Shown piece by piece: positions 15,453 through 55,842 of a DNA stretch of 64,000 nucleotides. The stretch comes from a virus: the UHGV virus genome UHGV-0149956. The stretch is one strand, 5' to 3'. Under the pieces are notes generated by a model. The model was not told where the DNA came from and made no database searches. It saw only the letters and a list, made by a program, of their open reading frames with translations. Positions within the stretch are counted from its first letter, which is position 1. Every line of letters begins with the position of its first letter. A program made the translations under genes and the position numbers.

Positions 15453-15559
15453 GTATTTTTAAGTCGCGAATGCTATCTTTTCGCATCATATTGACCTTTT
15501 AATCGTTCAGGCTTATAGTTCCGCCGTCGTAGCAAATTCTGCGACCGGGTTTAGCAGCC

Positions 15560-15650
15560 TGAATGTTAGTGCGGACAACCGCAGATATCCGATATTGCGG
15601 TATTTTTGTGTCCGTAAAACCGCGTTACGCCCAAATTATGGTGGGGCGTG
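15560..15650 (+). ncRNA. Candidate c4-like antisense regulatory RNA region
   Basis: Structured segment (inverted repeats CGGACAA...TTGTGTCCG and CCGCAGATAT...ATATTGCGG) between the operator and icd, the expected place for c4 in an immI region; boundaries approximate. Confidence 0.3.
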
Positions 15651-15766
15651 ATGGGGAGGCTTCGGCCTGCTGGTTTCACTAACGCCAGTCTGCTAACCCC
15701 GTCACGTCCTGCCACCTGTTTAGCAGCGGGTAGCAGGTTGTTAAACCTGTTAGTGAGGCCGTAACT

Positions 15767-19155: not shown

Positions 19156-19259
19156 TACAATCGTTGCGGGTGCTTGAGGCTATCTGCTTCAGGCATTACC
19201 CGAAAAGCAGATAGAAGAAAGCCCCAGATAACATTACGCGTCCTGCAAGACGCTTAACA

Positions 19260-19335
19260 TTAATCTGAGGCCATATCTATGCTTAGCATACGTAGATTAG
19301 CCTCTTACCGACCAAAAGGTCAAGGAGAAGCAGGC
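19260..19335 (-). ncRNA. Expected sok-like antisense RNA of the hok locus (position inferred)
   Basis: Hok/Sok architecture places the antisense RNA opposite the mok leader; no promoter verified. Confidence 0.3.
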
Positions 19336-19485
19336 TATGAAGCAGCAAAAAGCGATGTTAATCGCTCTGATCGTCATCTGTTTAACCGTCATTGTGACGG
19401 CACTGGTAACGAGGAAAGACCTCTGCGAGGTACGAATCCGAACCGGCCAGACGGAGGTCACTGTCTTCACAGCCTACGAATCTGA
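19279..19485 (+). CDS. mok: Mok-like overlapping reading frame
   Basis: 68-aa ORF beginning upstream of and overlapping hok in another frame. Confidence 0.5.
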   Translation: MLSIRRLASYRPKGQGEAGYEAAKSDVNRSDRHLFNRHCDGTGNEERPLRGTNPNRPDGGHCLHSLRI

Positions 19486-33323: not shown

Positions 33324-35584
33324 AAGAGCTGTGCTATGGATCTGTTTGCAGTGGAATTGAAGCCGCGAGTATTGCCTGGGAACCGTTGGGTATGCGTCCG
33401 GTGTGGTTTGCTGAAATCGAGTCTTTTCCATCTGCCGTTCTTGCGCACCGCTGGCCCCATGTCGCCAACCTTGGCGACATGACAAAACTTGCCAAAAAAG
33501 TCCTGGCTGGGGAAATCGAATCCCCTGATGTGCTCGTCGGGGGAACACCTTGTCAGGCATTCAGTATCGCGGGATTACGTGGTGGGCTTGATGATGAGCG
33601 TGGCGCGCTAACTTTAAAGTATGTGGAGCTTGCAAATGCAATTGACGACAAACGGGCTGAGTCATTTCTCAAACCAGCCGTTATCGTCTGGGAAAATGTC
33701 CCAGGAGTCTTGTCTTCGGCAGATAACGCCTTCGGATGTTTCCTTGCCGGATTGGCTGGAGAAGATGTGCCATTTGAACCAGGTGATCGACCTGAATCAG
33801 GAAAAAGCAACGCGTTCTGGCGGTGGGATGGCAAAACCGGTTGCCATGTTCCAAAGTGGCCGCAGTGTGGTTGTATTTATGGACCGCAGCGAAAGGTGGC
33901 CTGGAGAATCCTTGATGCCCAATACTTCGGAGTGGCACAACGACGCCGACGCGTGTTTGTTGTCGCAAGTGCTCGAACAGACCTCGATCCCGCAACGGTA
34001 CTTTTTGAGTTCGAAGGCGTGCGCCGGAATATTGCGCCGAGCCGAAAAAAGAAGGAAATCGCTTCCGCCATTACTGCAAATGGCGCTGCAATCAGTGGCG
34101 AAAGCCTAAATCCATGCCTACACGCTGGCATGTCCCCCGGTATGAAATCGACGAAAGCCGTAAACGGTTTCAGGATGGCGGCATTTGGGGAATATATTGA
34201 CGATGAAACCGCATCGACAGTAAAGGCAAGAGACTTTAAAGATGCCACTGACCTTGCCGTTTTTAGCAGCACTGGAGCAGGTTTTTGGTCAGAAGGGCAT
34301 GGTACATTGCGGGCGCGTGAGCAAGAAAGCCATGAGCATCTTGTTACATTGGCTTTTCCTGAGCGTATGAGTGGTACACAACATGCAGCAACTAAGAATA
34401 CTTCACCATCTCTAATGGCTCAAAATCCAACTGCTGTTTGCTATGAAGTAAGAAACGAAGAAGTAGCTGTCCGCCGTCTTACCCCTGTCGAATGTGAGAG
34501 ACTTCAAGGTTTTCCTGATGGGCATACGTTGATCCCTACGGAAAAGCGTAAAAAAGTTAATTCAGATGAACTGGCATATCTGCACAATCACTATCCAGAT
34601 TTAAGCGAAGAAGAGGCCGCGATGCTTGCAGCTGACGGACCGCGTTACAAAGCGATCGGCAATAGTATGGCAATACCAGTAATGCGCTGGATTGGCGATC
34701 GGATTACTAAGGCCGTATGTCGGCAGAAAGAAGGAAGTGAAACAAAAGAGCGAAAAGTTAAACCAGCGGCAGAATTCGAACGGTCCATATTCAAATGGGC
34801 TGGTGGAAAATTTGGTGTTCTGGAACAAATCTTTCGCTATTTGCCAGAAGGGAAGCGCCTGATCGAACCTTTTGTCGGTGGCGGAGCTGTCTTCACGAAT
34901 GCCGGATACCAGGAAAATCTGCTAAATGATGTGAATGCTGACCTGATTAACTTTTACAAGACTCTGCAACGCGAGGCGCATTCACTTATCACACTGGCGC
35001 ATCGGTTTTTCCAGGACTACAACACACAGGAAGGATACCTGGCAGTACGGAATGCGTTTAACAAACAAGTCTATGATGATTTACATCGCGCAGCGGCGTT
35101 TTTGTTCCTGAACCGACATTGTTTTAACGGATTGACGCGTTACAACCAGGCCGGTGAGTTCAATGTCGGTTATGGGAAGTATAAAACTCCGTATTTCCCA
35201 TTACAGGAGATGGAAGCCTTCCTCGGTGCGGAAGGGCGTTCTGAGTTTGTATGTGGTGATTTTGCTGCGGTAATTGAAGCTGCCGGAGAAGGAGATGTCA
35301 TTTTTTGCGATCCGCCATATGAACCGCTTCCAAATACAGAGGGATTCACGAACTATTCCGGTCATGACTTTAAGTTTGAAGAGCAAAAACGCCTGGTGTC
35401 TCTGTTGACGGATGCTCATCGTCGAGGTGCAAAGGTTCTCATTACTAACAGTGGCGCGCCAAACATCAGAGAGCTTTATCATGACAGTGGCTTCAGAGTG
35501 GAACCTCTTTTTGCCAGACGTTCTGTGTCTTGTAAGGGGGACACTCGAGGTGTAGCTCATGACGTTTTGGGTATATTGCTCTAA
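33320..35584 (+). CDS. dmt: Fused DNA methyltransferase: N-terminal C5-cytosine MTase plus C-terminal Dam-like N6-adenine MTase
   Basis: 754 aa; C5 motifs [11 protein letters not shown] and VWENVPG; Dam motifs FKWAGGK and CDPPYEP. Confidence 0.85.
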
Positions 35585-35591
35585 TAAATTT
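35575..35591 (+). promoter_or_regulatory. C1-repressor-type operator 17-mer
   Basis: ATTGCTCTAATAAATTT, perfect match to recalled consensus; overlaps dmt stop. Confidence 0.7.
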
Positions 35592-35765
35592 ATTAGTGTA
35601 ATATCGCCTCAATGAATCGTGATTTATAGAGCGATTTAGCTGTTAGCCGCGACAGGCGCGGCGGTAAGCATGGCTGGGCCTAGTCCTCCCAGACAAACCA
35701 CCGAGTTGCCAGGTTGACCATGCGCCTAAGTGGCAACGCCGAAGTGCGTTACGAGCTTCCAGTTT

Positions 35766-35790
35766 GCCCATCTTCGGGTGGGCTTTTTTA
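35766..35790 (+). terminator. Rho-independent terminator
   Basis: GCCCATCTTCGGGTGGGC hairpin followed by TTTTTTA. Confidence 0.6.
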
Positions 35791-36253
35791 GGGTTTTCGT
35801 CATGGTTAGCGACTTTGCGGCGGTTTAGAACCCGACCATTAAAGTAAATGCAAACGATGATCTGATGATGGTAGCGGCCTAAGAAGCCAGACGCCACGGG
35901 GTATGAGTCGTCCCCCGTCAAAAAATCGACCGCAGAGTGTCCCCGTCTGTGTATTAGGGAACGGGGAGGCACAACAGGTAAGGGCGCTGGTGTGATTAAC
36001 CAGATGAACGAGAAGGGGCCATCTGTTGGTCAGCGTCCTTTCCTGTTGCGTCTTCTTTTCAGCGTAACAGCGGTGCTTAACAGCACTTTGGGTACAGTTC
36101 CACGAATTTACGGGTATATCCCGTCATGCTGAAGGCGCTAATCACGCTGGAAGCCAGGGTTGTGCATCCCCTGTTACCGAATTGCAGCCAGGGCGCGGTG
36201 CGCCGAAAAGCATACGGAGGTGGAAGCCCTCGCCGGAGACGTACCCGGCAAGT

Positions 36254-36329
36254 GATGGTGTAGCTCAGCGGTTAGAGCGGTTGACTGTTAATCAACGGGT
36301 CGATGGTTCAAATCCATCCACCATCGCCA
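36254..36329 (+). tRNA. tRNA-Asn (anticodon GTT)
   Basis: Cloverleaf built by hand: acceptor GATGGTG/CACCATC, D-stem GCTC/GAGC, anticodon loop CTGTTAA, T-arm GATGG-TTCAAAT-CCATC, 3' GCCA. Confidence 0.85.
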
Positions 36330-36331
36330 AT

Positions 36332-36407
36332 GCCGGTTTAGCTCAGTTGGTAGAGCGCCTGCCTTGTAAGCAGGATGTCAGCGGTTCGAGTCCGTTAATC
36401 GGCACCA
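36332..36407 (+). tRNA. tRNA-Thr (anticodon TGT)
   Basis: Acceptor GCCGGTT/AATCGGC, anticodon stem CCTGC/GCAGG with loop CTTGTAA, T-loop TTCGAGT, 3' ACCA. Confidence 0.85.
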
Positions 36408-36420
36408 GCACAACAGGTAA

Positions 36421-36484
36421 GGGTATTTTGCGACGTCGGAGATCGCCGAGCTTGGCAGAGGGTTCGAATCCCTACGAAGTACCC
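36421..36484 (+). ncRNA. Truncated tRNA-like element (acceptor, D-like and T arms, no anticodon arm) within an extended helix
   Basis: GGGTATT...AGTACCC acceptor pairing, GCGA/TCGC stem, canonical T-loop TTCGAAT; flanking CAACAGGTAAGGG / CCCTTACCGTTG extend the helix. Confidence 0.3.
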
Positions 36485-37097
36485 TTACCGTTGTGATGAA
36501 GTGCAGCTCTTTGAAGCAACCAGAAGATAAGCATCTGGCTTCACAACATAAACCGCAGGAACGACCAATAAACGGTAGTCCGTATGGAGAACACCCCGTT
36601 GAGGAAGAGGCCTGGCCGGAACCGTAACCGGCACTACAACGTTGAGAACACTGGCGTAACGGGGTCATATCCCAATCTACGAATAAATGTTGCGTTGCAG
36701 CGTGACAACCAGTGTTCTCAACATTGTGGTGAATGCACAGGCTGATGTGCCGCAACTACAGTAGTGCGCGCTTTGCGGGGCTTGCTACAACCCTGTGTCG
36801 GAGTTCAGCACCGACCATCACAGTTCGATTCTCTGGCATGAGCATAACGCTGAAATAAGTCCAGTCTGGTGCGGCCCGATCACCCGCCGTTAGCTCCACG
36901 AAACGGAGCACGTAACAGGTAAGAGCATTCTCCTGTAACGGGTTCATATCCCAATCTACAGGTCCACCAGGAATGCTCTTTCCGTTGCGGTGAATGCGGC
37001 TAAGCGCACGCGGAACAGTTAAAACAATCCTCCTTAATGGTTAAACATTCCGGCGTTAATTGTTAACTGGTTAACGTCACCGGGAGGCACTCGGCAC

Positions 37098-37114
37098 CGC
37101 AATCTAATAAATAT
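37098..37114 (+). promoter_or_regulatory. Degenerate C1-operator-like site upstream of the TerB-ban operon
   Basis: CGCAATCTAATAAATAT, 11/17 to recalled consensus with conserved CTAATAAAT core. Confidence 0.3.
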
Positions 37115-37138
37115 GTCACTTTTATTGAGGGATAACCA

Positions 37139-37573
37139 ATGTTCGGTAAATTGTTCGGCAAGAAAGTCGCTTCTGCAAAAGTAGAGCTGAAAAAAGTTGA
37201 GAATCGCGATCTGATGGAGGCCATCATCGGTGGCTGTTTGTTGGTGTCTGCCGCTGATGGTGAAATCGAAAAAGAAGAAACAGCGAAACTTGATCAGCTT
37301 GTCCGCTCTAATCCGCGTCTTAGTCATTTTGGTAACGAAATTACTGCAACAATTACCCGCTTTACCGAGCAACTGGAAGCTGGCTTCCGTGTTGGTCGCA
37401 TGAATATCCTTCGCGAAATTGAAGATATCAAAAACGATCCAAAAGAAGCGGAAGAAGTATTCGTTAACATGCTGACAATTGCAGAAGCGGACGGTGAAAT
37501 CGAGCCAGCAGAACACAAAGTACTGGAAGAAGTAGGCCGTCGTTTGGGTCTTCGTGTGGAAGATTATCTGTAA
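37139..37573 (+). CDS. TerB-like (tellurite-resistance family) protein
   Basis: 144 aa with duplicated ADGEIE-x-EE motif characteristic of TerB. Confidence 0.6.
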   Translation: MFGKLFGKKVASAKVELKKVENRDLMEAIIGGCLLVSAADGEIEKEETAKLDQLVRSNPRLSHFGNEITATITRFTEQLEAGFRVGRMNILREIEDIKNDPKEAEEVFVNMLTIAEADGEIEPAEHKVLEEVGRRLGLRVEDYL

Positions 37574-37847: not shown

Positions 37848-37923
37848 GGCCCTTTAGCTCAGTGGTTAGAGCTGGCGACTCATAATCGCACGGTCACCGG
37901 TTCAAGTCCGGTAGGGGCCACCA
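37848..37923 (+). tRNA. tRNA-Ile2-like (anticodon CAT; could be read as Met)
   Basis: Close to E. coli ileX as recalled: GGCCCTT acceptor, anticodon loop CTCATAA, T-arm ACCGG-TTCAAGT-CCGGT, 3' ACCA. Confidence 0.8.
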
Positions 37924-55459: not shown

Positions 55460-55842
55460 TCACTATTACCAAAGAGCGACTGCTGACAATCAAGCAGTGG
55501 CGCGAAACATACGGACCGGGTAGCAACGTTGTACTGCCAGCAGAAGAAGCGGAAGAACTGGCACGAATTGCTCTGGCATCGCTGGAAGCAAAACCAATAG
55601 GTGCATTCCACATTGCAGAACAGCAAGTTGACGGCACAAGTGACTACATCAAGGATGGGGAGTGGCCTATTGATAATGGAATTATTGAGGTCTACGCCGC
55701 TCCCCCCGTTCCAGTAGTACCGGAAGAAAAACCAATGCCTAATCCTCTTAGCATGTACGCGGTTGATGCTGTTGCCGCTATTGCAGAGGTAAGAGGCTGG
55801 AATGCCTGCCGCGCGGCTATGCTTCATGGGAAAGGAAAGTGA
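55456..55842 (+). CDS. Hypothetical protein with ALASLEA motif
   Basis: 128 aa; ARIALASLEAKP shared with the 423-aa protein. Confidence 0.35.
   Translation: MITITKERLLTIKQWRETYGPGSNVVLPAEEAEELARIALASLEAKPIGAFHIAEQQVDGTSDYIKDGEWPIDNGIIEVYAAPPVPVVPEEKPMPNPLSMYAVDAVAAIAEVRGWNACRAAMLHGKGK

Follow-up and report, generated by a model that had tools for sequence, protein, structure and literature searches.

The UHGV virus genome UHGV-0149956 was analyzed as one stretch of 64,000 nucleotides (nt), hereafter the window, which is by its sequence that of a P1-like phage. Between positions 35960 and 37130, within what is read from P1 gene order as the ~1.5-kb untranslated leader of the C1 repressor-controlled ban operon, it carries four long hairpins, here termed HA, HB, HC, and HD. 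These hairpins belong to a family of RNA structures that is strand specific, co-oriented with transcription, common to lambda and many other phages, and often located directly after a terminator. We regard it as very probable that the family is conserved as RNA structure, and we lean toward the view, as the best explanation of HA–HD, that they act as processing sites for the RNase III of the host.

Pairing in a Hairpin Family of Phage Leaders

A first-pass annotation of this DNA had described an open reading frame (ORF)-poor region with nested inverted repeats and two repeated motifs. Its three-copy motif, AACAGGTAAG(G/A)G, was recovered as exactly three occurrences of AACAGGTAAGRG in the window (35973, 36412, and 36914, all on the + strand), against a chance expectation of 0.4 and with three copies reached in 1 of 100 shuffles. 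The twofold ACGGG(G/T) repeat was likewise recovered, as two copies of the 22-nt ACGGGKTCATATCCCAATCTAC at 36659 and 36938 (expectation 0); the coordinates first given for both motifs were 1–3 nt off. An inverted-repeat search identified the AACAGGTAAG(G/A)G repeats as the 5′ arms of long hairpins (Table 1). All four hairpins fold far better than shuffled sequence (z −4.8 to −6.5), the + strand being strongly structured here, and all are kept in a fold of the whole leader; the three spacers between them fold no better than shuffles (z +1.0, +1.2, and −0.4).

In the family stem (19–20 bp), which reads CAAC-A-GGUAAGAGCAUUG / CAGUGCUCUUUCC-GUUG, one A is bulged out and a U.U mismatch interrupts the helix. 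The stem closes a highly variable insert of 30–56 nt; membership was defined by the arms 5′ CAAC-(A)-GGUAAGRGCAYUG and 3′ CARUGCYCUUWCC-GUUG. HA, HB, and HD carry these arms, and HC carries a covarying variant, flanked as in the family by CACAAC and GUGGUGAAUGC. The bulged A is present in HB and HD, while in HA that A pairs with U, and the weak position of the stem is U.U in HA and HD, U-A in HB, and a C.A mismatch in HC. The position of the HC mismatch is a G in some relatives (D6 and P7), where it pairs on both strands.

The pattern AACAGGTAAG-N40-70-CTTWCC(N)GTTG matched at least 120 IMG/VR contigs, many of them 30–50 kb long and often with two to four copies within 1.5 kb. At least 89 distinct sequences stand among the pattern matches listed, with the consensus AACAGGTAAGAGCATTG...CAGTGCTCTTTCCGTTG and mutually unrelated inserts of 30–56 nt, and the commonest variant among the IMG/VR loci listed is the sequence of HA. 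An energy-based scan combined with a sequence filter gave 217 instances, 100 of them distinct, with diverged members of the HC type besides. An interior-anchored scan was noisy and was used only after an outer-stem pairing filter; a scan of genome contigs with a 20-base pattern and flexible gaps gave mostly chance matches (~130 are expected in 596 Gb), and only those in Enterobacterales look real. The family is absent from Rfam, where searches of the region at the gathering threshold and at E values up to 10, and of 15 related loci at the gathering threshold, gave chance miRNA-like matches only. No family copy was found in the E. coli K-12 prophages DLP12, Qin, and CPS-53 (Rac, e14, and other K-12 prophages lay outside the search).

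Pairing was counted over 129 distinct arm pairs, with the register chosen separately for bulged and unbulged forms. Eighteen of the 19 stem positions are 87–100% paired, and most positions show several pair types, with compensatory changes such as that of GAGCA/UGCUC to GCUGC/GCAGC, GAUUA/UAAUC, or GGCGC/GCGCC. Position 9 is the bulged A in 89 of the 129 pairs, and position 12 is U.U in 73 and U-A in 25. G.U pairs number 213 versus 26 A.C combinations; this excess, together with the orientation of the hairpins with transcription, argues that the selected structure is RNA, and specifically the fold of the + strand, and not a DNA cruciform. In percentage paired, double changes, and covariation alike, the family exceeded every one of 500 shuffles when a covariation tool was applied to a 60-row alignment in a single (mixed) register. 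A covariance model for which only arms from outside P1 were used (termed R1) ranked HD first in the window (19 bits, E 0.004), followed by HA (15.9 bits, E 0.03). The repeated motifs thus belong to structured RNA elements whose pairing relatives keep through compensatory changes; an absence of such conserved pairing was among the grounds on which the first-pass annotation would have been refuted.

Lambda has its family copy at 44787–44862, in the interval from Q to S; it begins 7 nt past the U-tract of tR′, which terminates 6S RNA, and overlaps predicted orf-64 in part. In lambdoid contigs, NinG, RusA, and Q-like genes stand upstream of the hairpin and holin, endolysin, and Rz downstream, and all of these flanking genes lie on the hairpin strand (30/30, 27/27, 27/27, 26/26, and 24/24). 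A second branch of the family, (A/C)AACAGAGAAGAGCAUCA...AGGUGUUCUUCUCUGUUUUG, lies just after a terminator and makes up the majority of the contigs listed in a scan for an insert module (described below); it is found in mEp460, SfV, SfII, SfIV, cdtI, and Stx2c phages, between a cI-like gene upstream and yfdP/yfdQ-like genes downstream. Family members often have an intrinsic terminator or a small hairpin of 5 bp on their upstream side, with a U-tract just upstream in 34 of 120 distinct contexts of the first branch and 31 of 41 module-scan contexts, and the commonest downstream flank is UGGUGAAUGCGCAGGCUGAUGCGC, a small hairpin.

The first-pass annotation had tied the elements to the tRNA genes of this region. 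That link was not borne out: the family occurs in leaders of lambdoid phages, and at 114 of the 160 loci that carry it the fetched stretch contains no tRNA. Hairpins with a tRNA nearby are on the strand of the nearest one in 95 of 101 cases, and in 27 family instances a tRNA-Thr ends 3 nt upstream of the hairpin, as with HB. In some lambdoid contigs (L017 7034–7183 and L030 2065–2208), a tRNA (Arg-TCT and Gly-CCC) begins at the last base of the hairpin 3′ arm, and the hairpin would there be the immediate 5′ leader of that tRNA.

Two further observations concern the lambda copy. Predicted orf-64 (44621–44815) runs across tR′ and through the 5′ half of the hairpin, and it probably does not represent a gene. 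When the lambda leader is folded as a whole, an alternative GUUGUGCUG/CAGCACAAC helix takes the place of the hairpin, a result to be read with the unreliability of long-range minimum-energy folds in mind. For the family in general, a reading of the 3′ arm (UGCUCUUU) as a boxA site for NusB/E was dropped because the sequence is sequestered in the helix.

RNase III as the Candidate Processing Enzyme

The proposal that HA–HD are RNase III processing sites draws on the form of the stem. In E. coli RNase III substrates, the proximal box consists of a G-C pair (pb1), an A-U or U-A pair (pb2), an A-U pair (pb3), and a weak A-U or U-A pair (pb4); pb4 adjoins the scissile bond, where a G-C pair blocks catalysis and a weak pair is tolerated, the natural R1.1 site having U.C, and the distal box is UA/UG (Pertzev and Nicholson, PMC1540722). 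The family stem presents a comparable series, G15-C in 109 of the 129 arm pairs, A14-U in 106, and A13-U in 122 (the most conserved of the varying pairs), followed by the weak position 12, and there is a conserved U.G/U-A step near the stem top (84 and 110 of 129). The stems of HA–HD measure 17–23 bp, within the range of RNase III helices (at least ~11 bp and typically ~20 bp). The 19–20 bp helix and its proximal-box-like core make RNase III likelier than the RNase P or RNase E named as candidates in the first-pass annotation, for which the substrate role was not borne out. A "WNAGWG" consensus for RNase III was set aside, as it runs counter to the sense of PMC1540722.

Known substrates offer two comparisons. 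The family stem resembles the T7 R1.1 site and the rRNA stalks in being a ~20 bp helix that is irregular inside, in its proximal-box-like series of a G-C pair, two A-U pairs, and a weak pair, and, approximately, in its U.G/U-A step; the 16S/23S stalks also enclose structured RNA in a multi-gene transcript with tRNAs. In contrast to these sites, the hairpins have an inexact distal-box spacing and order and a much more conserved stem, and their cleavage is a prediction. The second comparison is with lambda itself, where the family member follows tR′ directly in the Q-dependent late leader and matches the P1 copies in stem, flanks, and orientation. By the title of their 1988 paper (Virology 167:568), Daniels, Subbarao, Blattner, and Lozeron reportedly placed RNase III processing in the lambda late-gene leader. 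We infer that their sites are the hairpin at 44787–44862; the GenBank records of lambda contain no RNase III feature. The 1988 work concerns one lambda site, and the variable-insert family, its presence in the P1 ban leader beside tRNAs, and the tRNA-like modules are not known to follow from it.

Read-through of the dicF-like terminator from the C1-repressed promoter would give one RNA containing tRNA-Asn, tRNA-Thr, and HA–HD, followed by tciA, tciB, tciC, a tRNA (CAT), and ban. Host RNase III would cut within the stem beside the weak pair, between CAACAGG and UAAGAG, and these cuts would split the leader into independently folding pieces (upstream small RNA, tRNA precursors, and downstream mRNA) and release the variable inserts as small structured RNAs of ~50–90 nt. 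Because the hairpins frequently sit just after a terminator, a separating role is suggested: in read-through transcripts, cleavage would part the upstream short RNA from the downstream message. DicF itself reportedly arises through termination as well as through RNase III/RNase E processing. RNase III as the enzyme, the position of the cut, and the accumulation and function of the inserts are what we infer here.

Two earlier proposals can be judged at this point. Co-transcription of the elements with the authentic tRNAs is supported, in that the P1 annotation and the terminator scan, with its sole terminator-like site at 35761–35790, make this one transcription unit. A processing or regulatory RNA is upheld as to structured noncoding RNA, the hairpins being probably processing elements, and fails insofar as it was meant to be tRNA specific.

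Several observations weigh against RNase III processing. The search turned up no experimental data for P1. The distal-box match is approximate, being one base pair further along than in the model substrate and reversed in order, and one variant of the second branch, as read from the sequences, has at the position equivalent to pb4 a G-C pair that would suppress cleavage. The arms of HC are perfect on the minus strand (−31.3 kcal/mol), where the C.A mismatch of the + strand becomes G.U, which is opposite to the family-wide bias. The R1 scores are modest, with HB at 8.6 bits (E 4.6) and HC missed, a weakness that we attribute to the large penalty of an arms-only model for long inserts. The stem is conserved far beyond the needs of RNase III, which hints at another sequence-specific partner or at homogenization by recombination. 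Finally, a deletion in SJ46 fuses the 5′ half of HC to the 3′ half of HD and destroys both stems, and therefore at least two copies are dispensable.

Inserts, tRNA Likeness, and Mosaicism

The tRNA likeness noted in this region sits in the variable inserts, and its strongest case is a module resembling the initiator-tRNA anticodon loop. The first-pass annotation passed over the 22-nt repeat as a tRNA look-alike and singled out the element in HB, than which the repeat is more striking. As judged from its sequence variants, the repeat is a covarying module that resembles the anticodon stem-loop of initiator tRNA. One copy forms the HC insert together with a second hairpin (36688–36707), and another lies in HD (Table 1). 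Both copies, GGG-GUCAUAU-CCC in HC and GGG-UUCAUAU-CCC in HD, keep the three G-C pairs, 7-nt loop, U33, CAU, and A37 of the initiator anticodon arm, although neither has the full 5-bp anticodon stem, the lower two pairs being replaced by an AC/AAUC internal loop. Three G-C pairs are a hallmark of initiator tRNA. In the commonest form of the module in the family, GGG-CUCAUAA-CCC, a 14-mer that takes in these three pairs, CGGGCTCATAACCC, is exactly that found in the anticodon arm of metY, an E. coli initiator tRNA.

The module, ACGG(G/C)-YYCAUAW-(G/C)CC-AAYC, recurs in at least nine different closing-helix contexts. In HC and HD the closing helices are CGUA/UACG and CCUGUA/UACAGG; elsewhere they include CGUG/CACG, CCGGRYG/CAYCCGG, CUGAUG/CAUCAG, CUGUCUG/CGGGCAG, CUGAAUA/UAUUCAG, and others. 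Across 26 distinct sequences, pairing reaches 88.5% versus 74.8% in shuffles, with 32 double changes versus 9.8 (each value attained in 0 of 500 shuffles), and slid controls for the module structure are 27–53% paired. A scan with the module pattern by itself matched at least 120 viral contigs. The lambda insert contains, at 44825–44845, AGCCUGGUUAGC, which resembles the metY D loop, AGCCUGGUAGC, and a relation to it was rejected, as the shared 8-mer, AGCCTGGT, is within chance.

The tRNA-like element described earlier (36421–36484) is the variable insert of one family copy, HB, and is not a tRNA. What holds of the earlier description is the T arm: the insert contains AGGG-UUCGAAU-CCCU (36459–36473), whose loop is a canonical T loop in sequence. 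No tRNA was identified in HB or any other hairpin by ARAGORN or by the Rfam tRNA model RF00005 (E up to 10), and no tRNA or Y-RNA model matches the element. The second hairpin of the insert, GCGAC-GUCGGAG-AUCGC (36425–36441), had been called D-like in an element without an anticodon arm; it looks closer to an anticodon arm than to a D arm, which makes the stated lack of an anticodon arm arguable. By our reading of the sequences, HB variants favor the GCGAY-GUCGGAG-AUCGC hairpin over the alternative of RNAfold. The extension of the HB stem shows four compensatory pairs across four variants; the interior is almost invariant among its few variants, which puts the tRNA-like fold beyond the reach of covariation. 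T-arm-like hairpins (4–5 bp closing UUCRANY) occur in 12 of 100 distinct inserts, that of HB included, and are of four unrelated types; shuffled inserts give 0.1.

HB resembles the bacterial Y RNA-like YrlA (RF02553) in having a long closing stem and an apical domain with a T-arm-like hairpin. The YrlA stem leaves from the anticodon side, whereas the HB stem continues the acceptor-like helix. Identity of HB with YrlA or a Y RNA was rejected: the Rfam YrlA model has no match in HB, and RF02553 matches only tRNA-Asn and tRNA-Thr, at 25.6 bits versus a gathering score of 69. A further parallel, by description and not by sequence, is with the stable small RNAs of T4 known as species 1 and 2; these are structured non-tRNA RNAs of unknown function within a phage tRNA transcription unit, presumably released by processing, and unlike HA–HD they are not known inside a conserved long closing stem.

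It is tentatively conceivable, though we think it unlikely, that the hairpins are scaffolds that display or release tRNA-mimic RNAs, namely the anticodon stem-loop of HC and HD and the T-arm on an acceptor-like helix of HB. Such mimics would be decoys or ligands for tRNA-recognizing partners such as tRNA-cleaving toxins, modification enzymes, or the ribosomal P site, and their release by RNase III would be compatible with this role, which locates the function in the inserts. Recurrence of the module in varied closing helices with covariation above shuffles, its spread over so many viral contigs, the metY identity of its commonest form, the retained initiator features of HC and HD, and the excess of T-arm-like hairpins all argue for mimicry. 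However, imitation of the anticodon arm extends no further than its loop and top three base pairs, most inserts, including that of lambda, have no clear tRNA likeness, no gene for a partner protein is consistently nearby, and the near invariance of the HB interior denies its fold the same support from covariation. The fragments could be relics of decayed tRNA genes, and a literature search turned up no report of such decoys.

Among the relatives of P1, this region differs in entire modules, whose junctions fall either at the arms or at a 25-nt repeat. OP279344 and JL22 have an extra hairpin-plus-spacer cassette after HB, inserted at the HB 3′ arm; at the position of HB, the arms in P7 are unchanged and enclose another insert; in P7 and D6, 36748–36973 is replaced by 310 nt with an odd tRNA-Ser(UGA) and another hairpin; and the SJ46 deletion, which destroys HC and HD, runs between the two 25-nt repeats. 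Our reading of this mosaicism is recombination at short conserved blocks, as a consequence of the element and not its function.

The same junctions could instead mean that the conserved inverted arms act as DNA, either as homology blocks or as recombination sites like attC or miniature inverted-repeat transposable elements (MITEs), exchanging tRNAs, spacers, and inserts, with the RNA hairpin as a by-product. Integron attC sites have the ends RYYYAAC...GTTRRRY. The family resembles them in its CACAAC...GTTGTG ends, bulged base, variable center, and length of 75–100 bp, that is, as imperfect inverted repeats of similar length with conserved ends, extrahelical bases, and cassette-like gain and loss nearby. 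We nevertheless judge a DNA site improbable. Double-stranded DNA sites would not show the excess of G.U over A.C or the fixed orientation to transcription, an argument that is weaker against attC sites, which fold as single strands and are also strand specific. Integron attC sites are associated with an integrase and promoterless ORF cassettes, and neither an integrase nor any other recombinase is consistently adjacent to family loci. The consistent neighbors are, at some loci, NinG, RusA, Q, holin, and endolysin; at others, a cI-like gene together with yfdP and yfdQ; and at others again, dmt and tciA. Unlike attC sites, the family has sequence-conserved arms, a fixed position and orientation in transcribed leaders, and insert modules with RNA-type covariation; no target-site duplications were seen, and recombination at conserved blocks of 17–25 nt is an expected side effect of any conserved sequence.

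Slightly less probable again is the view that HB above all, and the other elements with it, are what remains of tRNA genes that decayed (pseudo-tRNAs) in a variable phage tRNA array and now serve no function. The array does vary, as there is an extra tRNA-Tyr in Ro157c2YLVW, the odd tRNA-Ser(UGA) in D6, P7, and pJN2-26, and a tRNA-Arg in other contigs; the canonical T loop of HB beside an acceptor-like helix, and the T-arm and anticodon-loop pieces inside inserts, would also be explained. Against this stand the same closing stem around many inserts unrelated to tRNA, the many loci with no tRNA nearby, lambda among them, the absence of a match between HB and any tRNA model, and the maintenance of the stems and the CAU-loop module by compensatory changes, which is unexpected for decaying pseudogenes. 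The tRNA-Ser(UGA)-like gene is 87 nt long and is absent from the window; it lies at ~1913–2000 in P7 (L005), 2607–2693 in D6 (L003), and ~2724–2810 in pJN2-26 (L008). ARAGORN calls it in related contigs (L014 and L048), the Rfam tRNA model finds it below threshold in P7 and L014, and the annotators of D6 noted that tRNAscan-SE did not assign it.

Least credible, and in our view very nearly dismissed, is that the region encodes the minus-strand proteins Plp and Upl of the P1 reference annotation, whose ORFs (125 amino acids with a TTG start, and 63 amino acids) are open in the window and in P1 because they run through the hairpin arms. The plp frame is split by the inserted cassette in OP279344 and JL22, is also split in P7, occupies three frames with a stop in Ro157c2YLVW, and lacks a start in D6 and SJ46; it is antisense to and overlaps tRNA-Thr, and upl is absent from D6, P7, and SJ46. 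Pfam has no match for either, and PHROG none for plp; upl matches just two PHROG families, both of unknown function, which we take to derive from ORFs predicted in this region itself. We conclude that plp and upl are not genes and that the earlier description of the region as having no convincing ORF is fair, with the caveat that ORFs of 40–125 amino acids exist on both strands and that the P1 reference annotates these two.

The ban Leader and Its Wider Meaning

RNase III processing would take place in a leader whose layout is known from P1. The 2.2 kb around 35960–37130 is 97–99% identical to P1 and P7 over the region, and 35580–37013 aligns at 99.4% to the P1 reference NC_005856 (L001 1581–3016). 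In the reference, the end of dmt is followed in order by the C1-controlled operator Op72 with the ban promoters, the dicF-like region, tRNA-Asn (trnA), tRNA-Thr (trnT), plp and upl on the opposite strand, tciA, tciB, tciC, tRNA-Ile(CAT), and ban, and it is this order, with the alignment, that places 35960–37130 in the ban leader.

Table 1. Position, Strand, and Basis of the Features of the ban Leader and Its Surroundings in the Window
Feature	Position	Strand	Basis
Hairpin HA; family closing stem, A paired to U, two-hairpin insert	35967–36053	+	Inverted repeat I2; −48.8 kcal/mol, z −6.4
Hairpin HB; family closing stem extended to ~21 bp	36408–36495	+	Inverted repeat; fold z −5.0; whole-leader fold
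Hairpin HC; diverged family member (CAACGUUGAGAACACUGG / CCAGUGUUCUCAACAUUG) with C.A mismatch	36632–36731	+	Inverted repeat I1; z −6.5
Hairpin HD; family closing stem, insert with second CAU-loop module copy	36912–36990	+	Inverted repeat; z −4.8; whole-leader fold
CAU-loop module in HC, CGUA-AC-GGG-GUCAUAU-CCC-AAUC-UACG; three G-C pairs closing 7-nt loop	36655–36681	+	
Second CAU-loop module in HD; loop UUCAUAU	36932–36962	+	
C1-controlled operator Oban (Op72) and ban promoters; start of transcription unit	35575–35604	+	Transferred from NC_005856 via 99.4% alignment
dicF-like region with intrinsic terminator at its end (stem 35761–35784 plus T run)	35699–35800	+	P1 annotation; terminator scan
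tRNA-Asn (GTT)	36254–36329	+	ARAGORN; Rfam tRNA 74.5 bits
tRNA-Thr (TGT); CCA end 3 nt before the CAAC opening HB	36332–36407	+	ARAGORN; Rfam tRNA model
Predicted ORFs plp (36378–36755) and upl (36756–36947)	36378–36947	−	Annotated in NC_005856; judged not genes
Putative spacer domain closed by GUUGUGA...UCACAAC	36489–36547	+	Read from sequence by eye, without statistics
STnc100-like tciA leader closed by UGCGGUG...CACCGCA; 5′ end overlaps HD 3′ arm	36986–37101	+	Rfam RF02076, sub-threshold
tciA (TerB family); first protein gene past the leader	37139–37573	+	Pfam TerB E 2e-14; P1 annotation
tRNA with anticodon CAT	37848–37923		ARAGORN; Rfam tRNA model

The terminator at the end of the dicF-like region is the only terminator-like site before tciA. 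The 5′ part of this region is similar, by eye, to the dicF precursor of the E. coli K-12 prophage Qin, and the tciA leader resembles, also by eye, the Qin dicF-dicB intergenic region (L348 19455–19585); the P1 ban leader thus has the look of a locus of dicF type that has taken up tRNAs and hairpins. The P1 reference differs in sequence at the position of the tciA leader, where the alignment stops. This leader is probably a distant relative of STnc100: it matches RF02076 at positions 31–147 of 206 with 43 bits (E 2e-7), short of the gathering score of 47. The prophage small RNA STnc100/PasD (bioRxiv 10.64898/2026.05.13.724894) has an outer helix, UGGUG...CACCA, of the same kind as closes the spacers after hairpins. 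In contrast to that free-standing small RNA gene, the match here is to a leader of tciA, and it covers only the last 115 nt of 35960–37130, not the hairpins.

The spacers between hairpins may be closed domains too. Read from the sequences by eye, the 3′ flank of the hairpins, GUUGUGRUG, is complementary to CAYCACAAC ahead of the next hairpin or tRNA in the window (36489–36547 and 36724–36830), P7 (L005 1750–1910), OP279344, pJN2-26, and lambda (44857–44941). The first of these domains is conserved after the equivalent hairpin in the Klebsiella phage pJN2-26, with tRNA-Ser next. GUUGUGRUG could pair either way, and this may be an alternative-structure switch or a mere result of modular repeats.

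Elsewhere in the window, another long hairpin, with CAAT...ATTG ends and arms of −21 kcal/mol, lies at 55595–55672 (+) and lacks the family sequence. The C4 antisense RNA and the a1/b1 target region of the P1 immI immunity region are found at 15513–15565 and 15634–15719 (+; Rfam RF01695 and RF03163), and a full-length sok antitoxin RNA at 19168–19342 (+; RF01794, 114.9 bits) implies a hok/sok-type killer locus.

The leaders of some of the best-studied phage operons (lambda pR′, lambdoid pL, and P1 ban) share an RNA element that had gone unrecorded. If that holds, the long-standing ORF predictions orf-64 of lambda and plp and upl of P1 are probably artefacts of hairpin arms, and the element would also explain how long untranslated phage leaders that bear tRNAs are cut into stable parts. 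Of greater interest are the variable inserts, which may have a function of their own; the look-alike of the initiator anticodon loop in at least 120 viral contigs and the excess of T-arm-like hairpins suggest a pool of small phage RNAs that engages the tRNA-recognizing machinery of the host. In its furthest form, which we consider doubtful, lambda-like and P1-like temperate enterobacterial phages would keep in the leaders of regulated operons a hairpin socket excisable by RNase III and loaded with interchangeable RNAs, mimics of the initiator-tRNA anticodon stem-loop and of a T-arm minihelix among them, that serve as decoys or competitors in lytic growth. Candidate targets would then be VapC-type nucleases that cut initiator tRNA, tRNA-cleaving toxins and defense nucleases, modification enzymes, and the ribosomal P site, and the fast turnover of inserts would reflect an arms race.

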